Below, piece after piece: positions 16,139 through 61,285 of a DNA stretch of 64,000 nt; position 1 is the stretch's first letter; each line of letters opens with the position of its first letter. The position numbers were made by a program, and so were the translations under genes. The DNA is taken from assembly GCA_028872875.1 (NCBI GenBank), contig JAGWOC010000002.1, positions 38,574 to 102,573 of the forward strand. Reading direction: 5' to 3'. The notes below the pieces were generated by a model. It did no database searches. It had not been told where the DNA came from and saw nothing but the letters and a program-made list of their open reading frames with translations. The DNA comes from Chloroflexota bacterium. Lineage in GTDB: Bacteria; Chloroflexota; Dehalococcoidia; DSTF01; JACRBR01.

Positions 16139-16428
16139 GGCGGGGCTCCTGACATCGGGCGGCGCGATCCGGCGCCGGGCTGCTGTTCCGCGTGCATCAC
16201 GACCGGTCTGTCAGGCGCTGGGGCAAAGGCCCTCAGCGCGATTCCGGCAGGCGGATCACTGGGCCCTTTCCTCGTGGAAGGTCGCTCCGGTCTCGCTCGC
16301 GACTGCTCCCTGGGAGCCCGTTGGGCCCGAGCTGAGGCGTTCTGGAGCAACGTCACTATACACCCGGCCGATCGCGCCAAAACAGGGTCGTTTGGGCGCA
16401 ATTGGACGGACGCCTGGCCCCTGCCCCG

Positions 16429-16455
16429 TACGGGTCTGGCCGCCCGTGCCGATAC
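16429..16455 (+). promoter_or_regulatory. Candidate sigma28-type promoter for the GGDEF gene
   Basis: TACG-N15-GCCGATAC. Confidence 0.55.
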
Positions 16456-16478
16456 TCGTGAGGGTAGGGGGTATCGCT

Positions 16479-17300
16479 GTGAGTGCACGTGCGCCGCGCC
16501 GCATCCGCCTCGTCGAAGGCGGCGGAGAATCCCCGCTGATCACCGCCGAGGGGCGCCCGAGCGAGCGCAAGCGGGGCATCTCGTGGGTGCCGGTGACGCT
16601 GCGGCTGCTCACCATCGCCTGGGGCGGCACGATCATCGCCGCCCTGCTCGACACGTTCGGGCTCGTGCCGCACCTGCCGTTCCTGCTCGCCATCGGCATG
16701 ACCGGCTTCCTCGTCGCGGCGATCTTCGTGCTCACCCGCGACGAGAGCCGGGAGCGCGAGGACGCGGCGGAATCCGACCCCGACGGCGACGCTGCCCACG
16801 ATCTGCTCACCGAGCTGCCGACGTTCAACCACTTCGCCCGCAGGCTCAACGACGAGTTCACCCGCGCCCGCCGCATGGGACGCCCGGTGTCCGTCGTGCT
16901 GGTCGATGTCAACAACCTCACGGCAGTGAACCGGGAATACGGCGTGCGCGCTGGAGACGCCGTGCTCCGCCACGTGGCGCGCACGATCGATGCCACGAAG
17001 CGCTTCAACGACGTGGTGGCCCGGCTCGGGGACGACGAGTTCGGGGTGCTGCTGATCGACACCGGCGAGGAGGGGATCGCCGCCTTCATCGAGCGGCTCG
17101 AAGATCGCCTCGCGCGCGAATCGGCCATGGCCGAGGTCGGTGGCCGCGACGTCTCGCTGTGGGCTGGCGTCTGCTCCGGCAGCGCCTGCGGCACGCCCGA
17201 CATCATGGGTGCTGAGAGGTTGCTGGAGGCGGCGATGGCGAGCCTCAACCAGGCGAAGCAGGACCGTGAACGCCGCCGCCGGATGTGGCTGTCGGCGTAG
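16479..17300 (+). CDS. Membrane-anchored degenerate GGDEF-domain protein
   Basis: Two TM helices, then LTELPTFNHF, VDVNNL, YGVRAGD and RFNDVVARLGDDEF; GTG start inferred. Confidence 0.85.
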   Translation: MSARAPRRIRLVEGGGESPLITAEGRPSERKRGISWVPVTLRLLTIAWGGTIIAALLDTFGLVPHLPFLLAIGMTGFLVAAIFVLTRDESREREDAAESDPDGDAAHDLLTELPTFNHFARRLNDEFTRARRMGRPVSVVLVDVNNLTAVNREYGVRAGDAVLRHVARTIDATKRFNDVVARLGDDEFGVLLIDTGEEGIAAFIERLEDRLARESAMAEVGGRDVSLWAGVCSGSACGTPDIMGAERLLEAAMASLNQAKQDRERRRRMWLSA

Positions 17301-17396
17301 CCGTCCCCGCGCCGTCCTCGTCGGCATCACCTCGTCGGCATCACAAGGATCCGGCCCCGGCCCGGAGGTCCTGCTGTTCGTCCGGGAGCCGGCCGG

Positions 17397-17909
17397 TCAG
17401 GCCGCGCGGCCGATGCCAAGGCGGGCGGCAGCCGCGTTCGCGTCCATCACCTCGCCCCGCGACAGAAGCTGGATGAGCGTGCCGATCCGCAGGATCTCCG
17501 CCAGCCCGCCGCCATCGCGGCCACGGTCGGTGAGCGTCTGGTCCAGGCGCGCCTCGTAGCCCGCGCGGAGTTGCGCCCGCAGCTCGCCACATCGGGCTGC
17601 CTCGGTCCAGACCTCGATCAGCACCCGGCCGAGGGCCGCAGGCGGGAGCGAGAGTGCCCCGTCGTCCGCCTCGAACGGCGGCAGGAGCGCGTTGCTGCGG
17701 ATCAGGCGCTCGACCACGCCCGCGAGCACGGATGACTTCGATGGGAAGTGGTGGTAGAGTCCGCCCTTGGAGCAGCCGGCCGCAAGGGCGACGTCGTCCA
17801 TCGACGCCGCGCTGAACCCCTTGAGCGCGAAGACGGCCAGCGCCGCCTGGACGATCTGGTCCCGGGTGCGCTGGGTGCGGAGTGCCTGCCGGTTCGGTTG
17901 GCTCAGCAT
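17397..17909 (-). CDS. TetR/AcrR family regulator (TetR-1)
   Basis: HTH GFSAASMDDVALAAGCSKGGLYHHFPSK. Confidence 0.92.
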   Translation of the reverse strand: MLSQPNRQALRTQRTRDQIVQAALAVFALKGFSAASMDDVALAAGCSKGGLYHHFPSKSSVLAGVVERLIRSNALLPPFEADDGALSLPPAALGRVLIEVWTEAARCGELRAQLRAGYEARLDQTLTDRGRDGGGLAEILRIGTLIQLLSRGEVMDANAAAARLGIGRAA

Positions 17910-17923
17910 ACGTACTATGTGAT

Positions 17924-17950
17924 GTATCGGCCGGGAGGGGCCGATCCGCA
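17924..17950 (-). promoter_or_regulatory. Candidate sigma28-type promoter for TetR-1
   Basis: Minus strand TGCG-N15-GCCGATAC, ending 14 nt before ATG. Confidence 0.5.
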
Positions 17951-18000
17951 GGCGTAGCAGGCCATCCGGCAGGAAATTTTCCGGATCTTGTCAAACCCTC

Positions 18001-18029
18001 TTGACAGGACGCCCCCGCTGGCGCAGAAT
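18001..18029 (+). promoter_or_regulatory. Sigma70-type promoter for the mini-gene
   Basis: TTGACA-N17-CAGAAT. Confidence 0.8.
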
Positions 18030-18031
18030 CA

Positions 18032-18049
18032 ATACCGACGAGTCGGTAT
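18032..18049. promoter_or_regulatory. Operator-like perfect inverted repeat at the predicted TSS
   Basis: ATACCGAC-GA-GTCGGTAT. Confidence 0.65.
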
Positions 18050-18101
18050 AGCTCGGGCCCCGGGTGGCACGAGGGCAACGCAAGGGTCAGGAGGAGTAGC
18101 C

Positions 18102-18128
18102 ATGGTTCAGCGCGCGACTTGGGGCTAG
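18102..18128 (+). CDS. Putative 8-aa micropeptide MVQRATWG
   Basis: AGGAGGAG SD, then ATG GTT CAG CGC GCG ACT TGG GGC TAG, lying between a consensus promoter and a terminator. Confidence 0.6.
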   Translation: MVQRATWG

Positions 18129-18149
18129 GCGCCCCGGAAACAAACCAAG

Positions 18150-18180
18150 GAGGGTCTCTCTGAGGCCCTCTTTTCCATTT
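18150..18180 (+). terminator. Intrinsic terminator, probably bidirectional
   Basis: GAGGGTCTC-TCT-GAGGCCCTC followed by TTTTCCATTTT; A-rich run on the 5' side serves the convergent HD-GYP gene. Confidence 0.8.
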
Positions 18181-18199
18181 TCTCACCGGGGGGGTGCGG

Positions 18200-19711
18200 T
18201 CACGCCGCCTGCTTCGGTGCGGCGGCGGCGTGGTGTTCTGTCGGCGCCTCGTGGTCGGCCATGCGGATCTTGACGATCTCGTCGAAGGCGAGCAGGAAGG
18301 CCTGGACGCAGCGCGGGTCGAACTGGCTGCCGCTGCACTTGATGATCTCGTCCCGCGACACCTCGGCCGAGAGCGCGCGCCGGTAGGGGCGGTCGGACGT
18401 CATCGCGTCGAACGTGTCCGCCAGCACGAAGATGCGCGCGCCGAGCGGGATCTCGTCCGCCAGCAGCCCCAGCGGGTAGCCCTTGCCGTCGAAGCGCTCG
18501 TGGTGCGCCAGGACGAGGCTGGCGGCGCCCGACAGGAACGAGATGTCCTTGAGCATGTCGTGGCCGATCTTCGGGTGGCGGCGCATGTCCACCCACTCCT
18601 CGTCGGTGAGCGGCCCCGGCTTGTGCAGGATCGTGTCGGAGACGCCGATCTTGCCGACGTCGTGCAGGAGGGCGCCCCGCTGCATGTCCAGCCACTCGTC
18701 GGTGCCGGGCGCGATGCCCATGTGGTAGGCGATCTCCATCATGTACTTGGCGACGCGGATCGAGTGGCCCTTCGTCTCGCGGTCGCGCGCGTCGAGCGCG
18801 GAGACGAGGGCCTCGAGCGTGCCGTCGTACGTCCGCCGGAGCTCGTCGGCCATCTGCAGGATGTCGGTGTTCGCCTTCTGGAGGTCCTGGTTCGTCTTCC
18901 GCAGCTCCTCGACATTCTCGGCCGTCTTGTCGATGTACTGCTTCATGGAGAGCCGTACCAAGAGCGGCGGCGCCGCGAAGGCTAGGATGCCGAGCACGCC
19001 CACGCCCGCGTACCCCACCGCCAGCGCCGCGCCCAGAAGTGCCGCCACGACGTAGTGTGGCAGCAGCCAGGCGAAATCGTCGTGCCACACGGCGTAGGTC
19101 TGCCGTCGCGTCGCCAGGCTCGCCGCGGTCGCAACTAGCGTGGTGTTAACCGCGTAATACACGACAACGGTCGCGGCAGTCACCGCGACGAGCAGGGCGG
19201 AGGTCGTCATGTGGCCGCCCATGAGGAGCCAGGCCACGCCCGCGATCGTGAGGTTGGAGAGCGTCACGGACCCGATGTCGAACAGCCGTTTGTACCACGG
19301 CGCGCCCGTCTCGTGGTCAGCCAAGAGGGCGGCGACCGGGCCGACGATGACGGCGCCGGCCGGGCCGAACAGCAGCGCGACCGCGAAGTCGCCGACCATA
19401 CCCAGCGAAATCGTCGTATCCCCGTAGATCGAGATCCGCGTCCTGCCCGCCGCGACGGCGAGCACGCCCAGGATGACAAATCCGGTCAGGTCCGACGTGT
19501 TGAGCTGGGGCGCGAAGTACGCCACTGCCGCCAGCCCCAGCGCGAAGACGAGCAGGACGTAGACCAGCGCCGGCCGCGGCAGGCGCGCCTCGGCCTCTGC
19601 GGCGGCGCCAGGCTGGACCGGCAGCGGGACGACGTTGGACGGCGCGTCGCCGCGCACGGCCCGCGTCTCGTCGCGGCCGTCGGCCGGTTCTTCGAAGGCT
19701 CGGTTCAGCAT
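18200..19711 (-). CDS. HD-GYP c-di-GMP phosphodiesterase with multi-TM N-terminal sensor domain
   Basis: GHSIRVA, LLHDVGKIG, HHERFDGKGYP and DAMTSDRPYR motifs; about 6-7 TM helices N-terminally. Confidence 0.93.
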   Translation of the reverse strand: MLNRAFEEPADGRDETRAVRGDAPSNVVPLPVQPGAAAEAEARLPRPALVYVLLVFALGLAAVAYFAPQLNTSDLTGFVILGVLAVAAGRTRISIYGDTTISLGMVGDFAVALLFGPAGAVIVGPVAALLADHETGAPWYKRLFDIGSVTLSNLTIAGVAWLLMGGHMTTSALLVAVTAATVVVYYAVNTTLVATAASLATRRQTYAVWHDDFAWLLPHYVVAALLGAALAVGYAGVGVLGILAFAAPPLLVRLSMKQYIDKTAENVEELRKTNQDLQKANTDILQMADELRRTYDGTLEALVSALDARDRETKGHSIRVAKYMMEIAYHMGIAPGTDEWLDMQRGALLHDVGKIGVSDTILHKPGPLTDEEWVDMRRHPKIGHDMLKDISFLSGAASLVLAHHERFDGKGYPLGLLADEIPLGARIFVLADTFDAMTSDRPYRRALSAEVSRDEIIKCSGSQFDPRCVQAFLLAFDEIVKIRMADHEAPTEHHAAAAPKQAA

Positions 19712-19755
19712 GCTACCGCCAGATGCGCATATCGCCGCCGGAAGGGCCCGTAGTA

Positions 19756-19782
19756 GTATCGGCAGCGGCGCGGCGGGCCTGA
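19756..19782 (-). promoter_or_regulatory. Candidate sigma28-type promoter for the HD-GYP gene
   Basis: Minus strand TCAG-N15-GCCGATAC, ending 44 nt before ATG. Confidence 0.55.
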
Positions 19783-19795
19783 GCCGCCGGGAGGC

Positions 19796-20521
19796 TCAGG
19801 CGGCCTGGTCGATCTCGGCGGCGAGCTGGCGCCGGAGCGTCGCCAGGATGCGCTTGTGAAGCTGGCAGACCCGGGACTCCGAGAGCCCGAGCATCTCGCC
19901 GATGACGTGGAACGGCCTGGATTCAGCGTATCGGAGCTTCAGGATGGCCCGGTCTCGCGCGTTCAGGTCGTGCAGCACCACATCGAGCATCGCAAGCGAG
20001 GCATTGTGGTCGGCCGCCTTGGCGGGGTCACCGGACTCGTCTTCGTCCACCGGGTCCAGCGCGGGGCCGTTCTCGCCACCCCGGTCCTGGAGCGCGTGCT
20101 CCAGCGAGATGAACTTCGAGTTGGCGTGGCGCAGGATGCCGTGGAGCTGGTCCGCAGGCATGCCGAGGCGGACGGCGACCTCCTTCGTCGTCGGCCAGCG
20201 GCCGAGCGATGCCGCGAGCTCCTGCGACGCGTGCTCGACCTCCCGCGTGCTCTTGCGCAGCGAGCGCGGCAACGGGTCCATCTTGCGGATGGCGTCCAGG
20301 ATTGAGCCGCGGATGCGCCGCACGGCGAAGCTCGCGAAGCTCGTGCCGCGCTCGGCGTCGAAGGCGTCGATCGCCTGGATCAGGCCCTCGGTGCCGTAGG
20401 CGAGCGCGTCCTCGCGGTCGAGCCCCAGGGTCTTCTGGTTGTCCGTGGACATGCGGCTGACGACGAAGGCCACGAGCGGCATGTGCCGCATGATCATCTC
20501 CTGGCGGTCTGGACTGCGCAT
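19796..20521 (-). CDS. fliA: FliA/WhiG (sigma28-family) RNA polymerase sigma factor
   Basis: GLIQAIDAFDAERGTSFASFAVRRIRGSILDAIRKMDPLPRSLR and IGEMLGLSESRVCQLH; GGGGGAG SD 6 nt before ATG 20521. Confidence 0.9.
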   Translation of the reverse strand: MRSPDRQEMIMRHMPLVAFVVSRMSTDNQKTLGLDREDALAYGTEGLIQAIDAFDAERGTSFASFAVRRIRGSILDAIRKMDPLPRSLRKSTREVEHASQELAASLGRWPTTKEVAVRLGMPADQLHGILRHANSKFISLEHALQDRGGENGPALDPVDEDESGDPAKAADHNASLAMLDVVLHDLNARDRAILKLRYAESRPFHVIGEMLGLSESRVCQLHKRILATLRRQLAAEIDQAA

Positions 20522-20617
20522 GAGAAGCTCCCCCGCAACGCGGAACCTGACTTCGCGCCGGAAGCTGCGACAGGGGAGATGCGCGGGAGACGCTGTCGAG
20601 CGTTGGGGGCTCGAGGT

Positions 20618-20697
20618 CTTCGGCGGCCCGGCCATCCGCGCGTACGGCGGACCCGTGGCTTTGCGTCCTCGCCTTTCGGCGAGTTTGCCCTGTCGGA
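20618..20697 (-). ncRNA. c-di-GMP-I (GEMM-I) riboswitch aptamer
   Basis: Minus strand CGACAGGGCAAACTCGCC-GAAA-GGCGAGGACGCAAAGCCACGGGTCC...GGATGGCCGGGCCGCCGAAG, matching the canonical GGGCAAAC / GAAA / GACGCAAAGCC pattern. Confidence 0.92.
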
Positions 20698-20845
20698 ACC
20701 TCTGACGATGACATCCAGGGCATCCTGCCGGGCCACGGGCGAGTCGTTCGCCCTCCATCAGCCTTAACGCTGCCGGGGGCCATGTGTTACAGGCCGGGGG
20801 GATCTTTTTTCGTCTGGGCGCAATGTGGGAGATTGTCAAGGGGTA

Positions 20846-20904
20846 TTGGCAAATGGGAGATCCTGTTGCATACTGACTTCGACGCAGGGGGCTGCGGACG
20901 ATAC
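20846..20904 (+). promoter_or_regulatory. Tandem promoters for TetR-2: sigma70-like and sigma28-like
   Basis: TTGGCA-N17-CATACT (20846-20874) and TTCG-N15-GACGATAC (20878-20904). Confidence 0.55.
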
Positions 20905-20936
20905 TCGCGGGGCGGGATCACGCCGGAGGGGGCGCC

Positions 20937-21551
20937 ATGGACCGATTCGAGCAACGCAAGCTGACCCGGGCACGGCTGATCGACGGTGCGCTGAAGCTGT
21001 TTTCGGCGAACGGCTACGACCACGCCACCATCGACGACATCTCGCAGGAGGCGGGCTACTCGAAGGGCGCCTACTACTTCCACTTCTCCACGAAGGAGGA
21101 CATCCTCCTCGAGCTGCTCCGCCGCTGGAGCGACGACCGCGCGTCCGGGCTCGCCGCGGTTGGCGGCAGCGACGGCGCCCGCGACCTGCGCGCGACGCTC
21201 GAGGCGCTCTTCTCCTACGAGCGCGAGCCGCGCTGGCCGGGCATGCTGCTGGAGTTCTGGGCGCAGTCGATGCGGAACGACGAGGTGAAGAAGCGCCTCG
21301 CCCAGGTGTACGGCGCCTGTCGCCAGGAGCTGGCGGCGTCATTCGCGGATGCCGCCCAGGCCGGCGCGGTGCGCGCCGGGTCCGCCGACGAGGCCGCGGG
21401 TATCGCGCTGGCGGCGCACGATGGGTATGTGGTACAGCTTGCCATCGGCTCGCCGGCCGGCAAGCTGATGACGCCCGCACAACTCGCCGACGCGCTCCTC
21501 TCGCCCCTCGAGGCCGCTCCTTCCGGGAAGCGTCGCGCAGCCGCGGTCTAG
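20937..21551 (+). CDS. TetR/AcrR family regulator (TetR-2)
   Basis: GYDHATIDDISQEAGYSKGAYYFHFSTKE; GGAGGGGG SD. Confidence 0.93.
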   Translation: MDRFEQRKLTRARLIDGALKLFSANGYDHATIDDISQEAGYSKGAYYFHFSTKEDILLELLRRWSDDRASGLAAVGGSDGARDLRATLEALFSYEREPRWPGMLLEFWAQSMRNDEVKKRLAQVYGACRQELAASFADAAQAGAVRAGSADEAAGIALAAHDGYVVQLAIGSPAGKLMTPAQLADALLSPLEAAPSGKRRAAAV

Positions 21552-27665: not shown

Positions 27666-27784
27666 ACGAGCCTGAGTGTATCGGCGGCCCGTCGGCGCGG
27701 GCAAGGAATCGTGGCGCCGCCGCACGCATCTGCCCGTAAGCGGGGCCGCTGGTATACTGCGCCGAATCGACGACCGAGGTGCCG

Positions 27785-60302: not shown

Positions 60303-61008
60303 CTGCCGCCTCCATCAGTGCTTCCTCGTGCAGCTCCAAGCCGAACTGCCTCCCGAACGCGGCGATCACCTCGGCCTCGACCGCAGGCACGTCGAAGTCC
60401 GCTCCCGCGAGCTGACGCATCGACGTTACGCCGGCGTCGGCGATGCCGCAGGGGATGATGTGCGCGAAGTACGAGAGGTCCGTGTTGACGTTCAGCGCGA
60501 AGCCGTGCGTCGTCACGCCCCGTGACACGCGGACGCCGATGGCGGCGATCTTCTCCTGCCGCACCCAGACGCCAGGGCGGCCCGGCGCCCGGCCCGCGAC
60601 GATGCCAAATCGCGCCAGCGTCTCGATGAGCACAGCTTCGAGCGAACGCACATACCAGACCGGACCGCTGCCGAATCGCCGGAGGTCGAGGATGGGGTAC
60701 GCGACGAGCTGCCCGGGGCCGTGGAAGGTAACGTCGCCGCCGCGGTCCGTTTCGACGACCTGCGCGCCGCGCCTCGCGAAGGCCTCGCGGCTGAGCAGCA
60801 GATGCTCGCCTTTGCCGCGGACGCCGAGGGTGTAGGTCGGTGGATGCTCAACGAGGATCAGCGCCGGGTCGCCACCCGCGCGCACCCCGTCTGCGATGCG
60901 CTGCTGCATCTGCCAGGCGCGCTGGTAGTCGACAAGCCCGGGCCGGAGGAGGGTGCAGCGGGATCCCAAAGCGGCCGTTCTTTCCGGTGCGCGCGCCGCG
61001 GCGCTCAC
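60292..61008 (-). CDS. lipB: Octanoyltransferase
   Basis: EHPPTYTLG, DRGGDVTFHGPGQ, KIAAIG, HGFALN and IPCG; TGCTATGCT extended -10 6 nt before GTG. Confidence 0.95.
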   Translation of the reverse strand: MSAAARAPERTAALGSRCTLLRPGLVDYQRAWQMQQRIADGVRAGGDPALILVEHPPTYTLGVRGKGEHLLLSREAFARRGAQVVETDRGGDVTFHGPGQLVAYPILDLRRFGSGPVWYVRSLEAVLIETLARFGIVAGRAPGRPGVWVRQEKIAAIGVRVSRGVTTHGFALNVNTDLSYFAHIIPCGIADAGVTSMRQLAGADFDVPAVEAEVIAAFGRQFGLELHEEALMEAAVGR

Positions 61009-61285
61009 CTCTTGAGCATAGCACAGCGGTCAGAAAGTCAATCGGATCGAGTATCGGCGGTGCGCTGGCACCATGCAGCGGGAGAACCCTGACGGGATTT
61101 CCGAAGCCGGGCCAGGGCGAGGGGCTGTCCGGCCGGAGTGTGGCGGGCCAGAGCGCCGCTGGCGTCCCGCCCGCCGGGCCCCAGGGGGCGTCGCGGCGCT
61201 CACCGCGCTACGTCGCCTGTGCGGGACGCGACGAGGCCCGGACGGCAAGTCCGGGCCCCGTTCTCGGTCCACCGTGTGGGCGACG

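Follow-up and report, generated by a model that had tools for sequence, protein, structure and literature searches.

In a 64,000-nucleotide stretch of contig JAGWOC010000002.1 from a Chloroflexota bacterium (the window; 70.7% G+C, part of a 3.4-Mb assembly in 234 contigs), a short box, GCCGATAC or a close variant, stands before the genes for a GGDEF-domain protein, an HD-GYP-type phosphodiesterase and two TetR regulators (TetR-1 and TetR-2), which are clustered with a sigma factor gene. These boxes are likely promoters of the sigma-28 (FliA/WhiG) class, built of two blocks, with the sigma factor encoded at 19796-20521 as their most likely reader in a circuit of cyclic di-GMP (c-di-GMP). In the promoter model, a -10 element, GCCGATA[C/T/A]T, and a -35 element, CT[A/G]CGG, lie 14-15 bases apart. 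The motif, its placement and orientation in the genome, its conservation, the family of the sigma factor, the riboswitch in front of the sigma gene, and the functional enrichment of the targets were all shown by the analysis.

Probable promoters in the cluster and across the genome

The first-pass annotation of this DNA had listed six boxes as a putative local sigma28 regulon: the four of the cluster, and outlying copies before tRNA-Phe and lipB. All six are present in the window sequence at the positions it had given (Table 1). As it had also described, a T is found at -19 from the box in 6/6 sites, and CT in 5/6. Ten copies of the 8-mer GCCGATAC were counted in the 64-kb window, a number reached by 0/100 dinucleotide shuffles. 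The shuffles gave 2.26 +/- 1.36 copies, so the earlier estimate of about 2 chance copies per window was right. Its count of three copies inside coding sequences was too low, as there are five exact ones (22664-, 23284+, 25161-, 45724- and 56759+). The exact intergenic copies are oriented toward the adjacent downstream gene in 5/5 cases.

Comparison of the orthologous regions showed that the cluster promoters are conserved in up to about 30 genomes, in which the identity of the sigma factor is 59-98%. The HD-GYP promoter was found at the same place in about 30 genomes as CTACGG-N15-GCCGATA[T/C]T; in order-level relatives its -10 is GCCGATAA, the canonical sigma-28 -10. The GGDEF promoter orthologues from 11 genomes read GT[A/T][C/A]GGG-N13/14-GCCGATA[C/T/A]T, followed by the ribosome-binding site AAGGGGGT. 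The TetR-1 promoter in relatives reads CT[A/G]CGG-N15-GCCGAT(nn)TT; thus, the GCCGA core and the -35 are constant while the 3' part of the -10 drifts. The TetR-2 promoter has the form GTCGGA/GTTGGA-N13-G[C/A]CGATA[C/A]T in about 20 relatives. Among the promoters of HD-GYP, GGDEF, and TetR-1, the GCCGA core does not vary. The GCCGATAC box fits the sigma-28 -10 GCCGATAA at 7/8 positions, and at 8/8 in more distant relatives; the box in other genera is GCCGATAA or GCCGATAT.

Genes of the whole assembly were called with a purpose-made caller based on G+C content at third codon positions (GC3), which gave 3291 genes and 86% coding DNA. The strand-biased hexamers upstream of these genes were TACACT, TAGACT, TATACT, and TACAAT, along with ribosome-binding-site words; the housekeeping -10 is therefore taken as TANNNT. 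GCCGATACT is found upstream of genes 18 times in the gene sense and 7 times antisense; the coding DNA, 5.8 Mb when both strands are counted, has only 7 copies. Sequences that differ from GCCGATACT by one base are each several-fold rarer; at position 3, C is found 18 times and the other three bases 0 times. Among the intergenic GCCGATACT sites, 19/22 face the next gene, mostly with 6-130 bases between site and start codon. In several cases the ATG follows 6-7 bases after the end of the box, a distance that fits leaderless transcripts. The dinucleotide [C/G]T occurs at -21 to -19 in 15/22 of the intergenic sites, compared with 19.7% of random intergenic DNA (p = 1e-6); the coding copies show no such bias (19/85). 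The -35 core that is general across the genome is only this [C/G]T, and TAAA, TAAG, or TAAT is found at a few sites. These observations support the box as a specific promoter element, distinct from the general -10 TANNNT of the genome. The intergenic enrichment across the genome, which the first-pass annotation had named beforehand as a test, is present.

Table 1. Boxes, promoters, genes and aptamer described in the text. Positions refer to the window, except that of the sigma paralogue.
Feature	Position	Strand	Details
GGDEF box	16448-16455	+	gTACG-N15 before box
TetR-1 box	17931-17924	-	cTGCG-N15 before box
HD-GYP box	19763-19756	-	cTCAG-N15 before box
TetR-2 box	20897-20904	+	GACGATAC variant; cTTCG-N15 before box
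tRNA-Phe box	27685-27678	-	cTTGC-N15 before box
lipB box	61058-61051	-	cTGCA-N15 before box
lipB box with upstream block	61050..61078	-	CTGCAT-N14-GCCGATACT
GGDEF promoter	16428..16456	+	-35 GTACGG (16428-16433), 14-base spacer, -10 GCCGATACT (16448-16456)
TetR-1 promoter	17923..17951	-	-35 CTGCGG (17951-17946), 14-base spacer, -10 GCCGATACA (17931-17923)
HD-GYP promoter	19755..19783	-	just past sigma stop; -35 CTCAGG (19783-19778), 14-base spacer, -10 GCCGATACT (19763-19755)
TetR-2 promoter	20877..20905	+	divergent from sigma gene; -35 region cTTCGA, -10 GACGATACT (20897-20905)
tRNA-Phe promoter	27675..27704	-	-35 TTGCCC, 18-base spacer, -10 TACACT
c-di-GMP-I riboswitch aptamer	20618..20698	-	Rfam RF03167, 69.1 bits (gathering score 59)
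GGDEF-domain gene	16479..17300	+	Pfam GGDEF 2e-27; GTG start 16479 after ribosome-binding site
TetR-1 regulator	17397..17909	-	Pfam TetR_N 3e-15
HD-GYP-type c-di-GMP phosphodiesterase gene	18200..19711	-	Pfam HD_5 6.6e-31; HHERFDGKGYP in translation
FliA/WhiG-family (sigma-28 type) sigma	19796..20521	-	Pfam regions 2, 3, 4 present
TetR-2 regulator	20937..21551	+	Pfam TetR_N and TetR_C_6
Second FliA/WhiG paralogue	C176:30141-30968	-	39% identical; TIGR02479 194.4 bits, above cut-off

The first-pass annotation had itself offered an alternative, namely that GATACT is merely a -10 variant of the housekeeping sigma and the preceding GCC a piece of GC-rich spacer. GATACT retains A2 and T6 of TANNNT, and the copy before tRNA-Phe indeed belongs to such a promoter: relatives keep TTGCCN-N17/18-TACA[A/C]T even where GCCGA has changed to GCCGC or GTCGA. 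Judged by this conservation, tRNA-Phe has a housekeeping promoter with which the 8-mer overlaps by chance, and the proposal of this copy as a sigma28 site fails. About half of all GCCGATACA sites also read TACA[A/C]T; these are probably housekeeping promoters, like that of tRNA-Phe. Near the lipB box, an extended -10, TGTGnTATGCT, is conserved in nearly all relatives at about 50 bases from the start codon (~61000-61030, minus strand), independently of GCCGATAC. The lipB box itself is kept, exactly or with one mismatch, in about 9/25 relatives, 25-30 bases upstream of the extended -10; it is probably another promoter, arranged in tandem with a housekeeping one. The idea of sigma28-type promoters therefore stands for the four cluster sites and is plausible for lipB, but not for tRNA-Phe.

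Beyond these copies, the evidence goes the other way. Among about 85 upstream GATACT sites, 18-22 are preceded by GCC, compared with 3-4 expected. The constant part across genomes is GCCGA and not the hexamer, as the TetR-1 orthologues read GCCGATCATT, GCCGATAGTT, or GCCGATGCTT. The conserved -35 is CTACGG and not TTGNCN, and the housekeeping combination (-35 TTGNCN, 17-18 bases, -10 TANNNT) was found only at tRNA-Phe and at none of the four cluster promoters. The genes behind the box are also functionally coherent. A housekeeping origin of the boxes is therefore improbable.

The box might also be an operator for a DNA-binding regulator, such as one of the two TetR proteins, rather than a promoter element. 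Both TetR genes of the cluster carry it upstream, as is often the case for auto-regulated repressors. However, TetR operators are as a rule palindromic, and the box is not symmetric. It strictly faces the downstream gene (19/22). Its distances are those of a -10, with 6-7 bases to the start codon in some cases, and a second conserved block accompanies it at the spacing of a promoter. The operator explanation is highly improbable.

Two further conserved words were noted near the TetR promoters. Between the divergent TetR-2 and sigma genes (~20866-20874, plus strand), about 22-25 bases before the TetR-2 box, GTGCATACT is strongly conserved in about 20 relatives and could be a housekeeping -10 or an operator. 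TTGACAAG is conserved about 60-70 bases upstream of the TetR-1 box (~17985-18000, minus strand) in many relatives.

The sigma factor gene and its leader

TIGR02479 was by far the best family for the sigma factor of the cluster. Its best solved relatives are WhiG of Streptomyces venezuelae (6PFV, 130 bits) and FliA of Escherichia coli (6PMI), and the segments RIRG..LD..R...PRS.R and ESRV.QLH are common to the three. The gene order is conserved family-wide: a 2-hydroxyacid dehydrogenase, TetR-2, and, divergently, sigma, HD-GYP, and TetR-1, with GGDEF on the opposite strand. The sigma orthologues share 77-98% identity throughout the family and 55-68% in the order; at E <= 1e-45, an orthologue was found in 0/120 genomes sampled across the phylum outside the order. 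Two genomes of relatives, G019 and G001, which have no match to this sigma, were considered as natural knock-outs and rejected as assembly gaps; the HD-GYP orthologue of G019 begins at contig base 1. The HD-GYP gene contains both the HD and the GYP motifs. The signature of the local GGDEF protein is GDDEF, with an RxxD site five residues upstream (RFND-VVARL-GDDEF in the translation); this protein, with its degenerate signature and RxxD, may be a sensor of c-di-GMP and not a cyclase.

The sigma gene is preceded in its 5' leader by an aptamer, 97 bases upstream of the ATG, which matches the Rfam model over its full length (model positions 1-80). The aptamer belongs to the GGC variant of c-di-GMP-I (Rfam clan CL00126) and, with its score above the gathering score, is a predicted c-di-GMP-I riboswitch. 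An aptamer is found upstream of the sigma orthologue in 20/20 relatives tested, 15 of them matching RF03167 and 5 RF01051. Literature searches on the RF03167 variant gave nothing on a ligand or on a link to a sigma gene. As the aptamer lies in the leader of the sigma mRNA, c-di-GMP would set the amount of sigma. In simple folding, the 5' strand of the aptamer, CGACAGGG, is able to pair with the downstream CCCUGUCG. Such an alternative pairing suggests an OFF switch that may act by sequestration of the ribosome-binding site; a constrained fold gave no clean picture of this sequestration. Two other c-di-GMP-I aptamers are present in the genome, one before a subtilase gene (C140:25645-25732) and one before SRPBCC and AIR-synthase-like genes (C204:42896-42984).

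Targets of the box and its likely reader

The genes behind exact boxes encode, among others, GGDEF, HD-GYP, and GAF-HD-GYP proteins, an OmpR-type response regulator, and a histidine kinase. They also encode several membrane glycosyl- and acyl-transferases, a GNAT acetyltransferase, a DnaJ-domain protein, and Lon (the last named from its sequence, without a Pfam scan). In the genome, 22 GGDEF or HD_5 genes could be called, and the box was sought within 250 bases upstream of each. An exact box was found for 5/22 of these genes, compared with 22/3269 of the other genes (odds ratio 43, p = 6e-7). When up to one mismatch was allowed, the counts were 12/22 and 227/3269, respectively (p = 5.5e-9). 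In three other genera, an exact GCCGATA[C/T/A] lies upstream of 10/25 HD-GYP genes, compared with a proxy background of 1.9% (p = 2e-11). The regulon is thus not local, as had been proposed: about 22 exact sites and further variants are spread through the genome, centred on genes for c-di-GMP enzymes.

The earlier proposal that "the encoded sigma" reads the boxes holds in that a FliA/WhiG-family sigma lies in the middle of the cluster, but a second FliA/WhiG paralogue (Table 1) is also a candidate. This paralogue, alone or together with the riboswitch-linked sigma, might read the promoters; the specificity of the riboswitch-linked sigma would in that case differ or overlap. On TIGR02479 the paralogue has the higher score (194.4 bits), and it carries the same RIRGSILDAIR...PLPRSL segment and is present in all 41 genomes searched. 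Moreover, csrA, which is SigD-linked in Bacillus subtilis, lies beside the paralogue and has a GCCGATA box of its own, conserved across the order: GCCGATA[C/T/A]N is found about 85-100 bases upstream in about 18 relatives. However, its -35 is gCCAgCA and that of the cluster is CT[A/G]CGG, a hint that there are two -35 classes. In every genome, the four promoters of the cluster are physically linked to the riboswitch-linked sigma, and one of them begins no more than 40 bases from the sigma stop codon. Reading by the paralogue or by both sigmas is a serious alternative, yet a somewhat unlikely one, and we infer that the riboswitch-linked sigma is the reader of the box. Since both paralogues share the segment that is expected to read the -10, this assignment rests on the linkage and on the -35 difference. 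The paralogue is in an operon with a GFO/IDH/MocA-like gene (C176:28689-30968), convergent to csrA.

Several observations weigh against the proposed promoter class and its reader. The riboswitch-linked sigma scores 183.5 bits on TIGR02479, just below the cut-off of 189.6. The sigma-28 consensus cited in the first-pass annotation is matched in the -10 (7/8) but not in the -35: instead of TAAA, the conserved block is CT[A/G]CGG or GTACGG, which has only T and A in common with it, although the spacing is as expected of sigma-28. With the full CTACGG weight matrix (score >=4), the genome itself gave 5 intergenic sites compared with 3.7 expected; because of this weak separation, most genome sites rest on the -10 and the single conserved CT. 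As the gene calls are GC3-based, some intergenic or coding labels of the sites may be wrong. The segment expected to read the -10 is common to both paralogues, and the second one is located beside the boxed csrA; therefore, either or both sigmas could read the promoters. Finally, RNA sequencing runs holding the window sequence were sought, and only DNA metagenomes matched; these were from mine drainage, sediment, and groundwater.

Comparison with known systems and the proposed circuit

Sigma-28 factors are textbook regulators of flagellar genes. The flagellar promoters have the consensus TAAA-N15-GCCGATAA for FliA of E. coli and GCCGATAT for SigD of B. subtilis (as quoted in PMC8325347). The boxes described here resemble them in the -10 (7/8 positions, and 8/8 in related genera), in the spacing, and in the presence of csrA among the conserved targets. 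They differ in that the -35 is not TAAA and the targets are signalling and envelope genes rather than motility genes; FlhA, a component of flagellar export, and the anti-sigma FlgM were sought in the genome and not found.

In Actinomycetota, the sigma-28 family has been re-purposed and placed under the control of c-di-GMP through the anti-sigma factor RsiG, and the WhiG regulons include many genes for diguanylate cyclases (DGC), phosphodiesterases (PDE), and TetR regulators (PMC8325347; bioRxiv 10.64898/2026.01.14.699351). The published consensuses are T(A/C)AA-N16-GCCGATAA for WhiG2 and CTCA-N16-17-GCCGAACT for WhiG1, in which the central CGA is constant (bioRxiv 10.64898/2026.01.14.699351). 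The pattern of the TetR-1 promoters, where GCCGA is kept and the rest of the -10 drifts, fits these motifs. The present system is similar to the WhiG regulons of Rubrobacter radiotolerans (PMC8325347) and of the WhiG1/WhiG2 survey in its sigma family, the GCCGA core of the -10, and a -35 about 15-16 bases upstream. Both also have a non-flagellated host, a regulon rich in DGC/PDE and TetR genes, and a sigma tied to c-di-GMP, as is proposed here. However, the host is a member of the Chloroflexota, a phylum used in the WhiG studies only as an outgroup. The -35 CT[A/G]CGG differs from the T(A/C)AA of WhiG and is nearer to the CTCA of WhiG1. No RsiG motif was found: a six-frame regular-expression search for E(X)3S(X)2R(X)3Q(X)3D, a motif and not a profile search, gave three hits, none of them in a small coiled-coil gene. 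In place of RsiG, c-di-GMP would act through the riboswitch on the sigma mRNA.

The c-di-GMP riboswitch Cd1 of Clostridioides difficile lies upstream of the flgB operon, which contains sigD (PMC6200980, PMC5386303). The predicted arrangement here is similar, as a c-di-GMP-I riboswitch stands ahead of a sigma of the sigma-28 family. In C. difficile, however, the riboswitch heads a long flagellar operon in which the sigma is one distal gene, whereas the sigma gene described here is monocistronic and has the aptamer in its own leader. The output would also be different, namely c-di-GMP metabolism itself. Sigma-28-class promoters are already known, as are WhiG regulons with many DGC/PDE and TetR genes and a riboswitch-headed sigD operon. 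This phylum as the host, a riboswitch placed directly on the sigma gene with neither RsiG nor FlgM found, the CT[A/G]CGG -35, and a regulon so centred on c-di-GMP genes were not found in the searchable literature. With its sigma gene behind a c-di-GMP riboswitch, this appears to be a regulon of a known kind with novel wiring.

In the proposed circuit, c-di-GMP would bind the leader aptamer and alter the synthesis of the sigma factor, which would direct the RNA polymerase to CT[A/G]CGG-N14/15-GCCGATAYT promoters. HD-GYP phosphodiesterases, GGDEF proteins, the two TetR regulators, and envelope enzymes would be switched on. As the target set across the genome heavily over-represents proteins that make, break, or sense c-di-GMP, a feedback loop would be closed. 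Transcription would start 6-9 bases after the box, as expected of this promoter class, with indirect support from the boxes that end 6-7 bases before an ATG; the riboswitch may act in either direction. If the riboswitch is OFF, which is compatible with the competing CGACAGGG/CCCUGUCG pairing, positive feedback through the phosphodiesterases under sigma control would make the circuit switch-like, and the sign would agree with that of RsiG in Actinomycetota and of Cd1 in C. difficile. An ON switch would make the loop homeostatic.

A broader proposal, which we hold with about even confidence, is that an RNA sensor replaces the protein anti-sigma in this non-flagellated Chloroflexota order. The riboswitch would gate the sigma, the regulon would consist mainly of the organism's own c-di-GMP enzymes and receptors, and the -35 would have been re-tuned to CT[A/G]CGG; the paralogue would possibly read a sister class of promoters (csrA). 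If true, this would be a compact and self-referential second-messenger circuit. The locus suggests that a similar link between c-di-GMP and the sigma-28 family exists in another phylum by another mechanism, a riboswitch on the sigma mRNA. It also provides a promoter model that can be tested, CT[A/G]CGG-N14/15-GCCGATAYT, in an uncultured lineage of mine drainage and sediment; knowledge of promoters and regulons is almost absent for such lineages. The locus is also a natural case for studying the drift of sigma -35 specificity in GC-rich genomes.

One further target of the box (C193:134-1405, minus strand) has no Pfam match. The N-terminus of its product resembles that of a prepilin (GLGLVELVLGLAISSML) and is accompanied by a Thr/Pro-rich linker, which is reminiscent of the type IV pilus genes that Rubrobacter WhiG targets.

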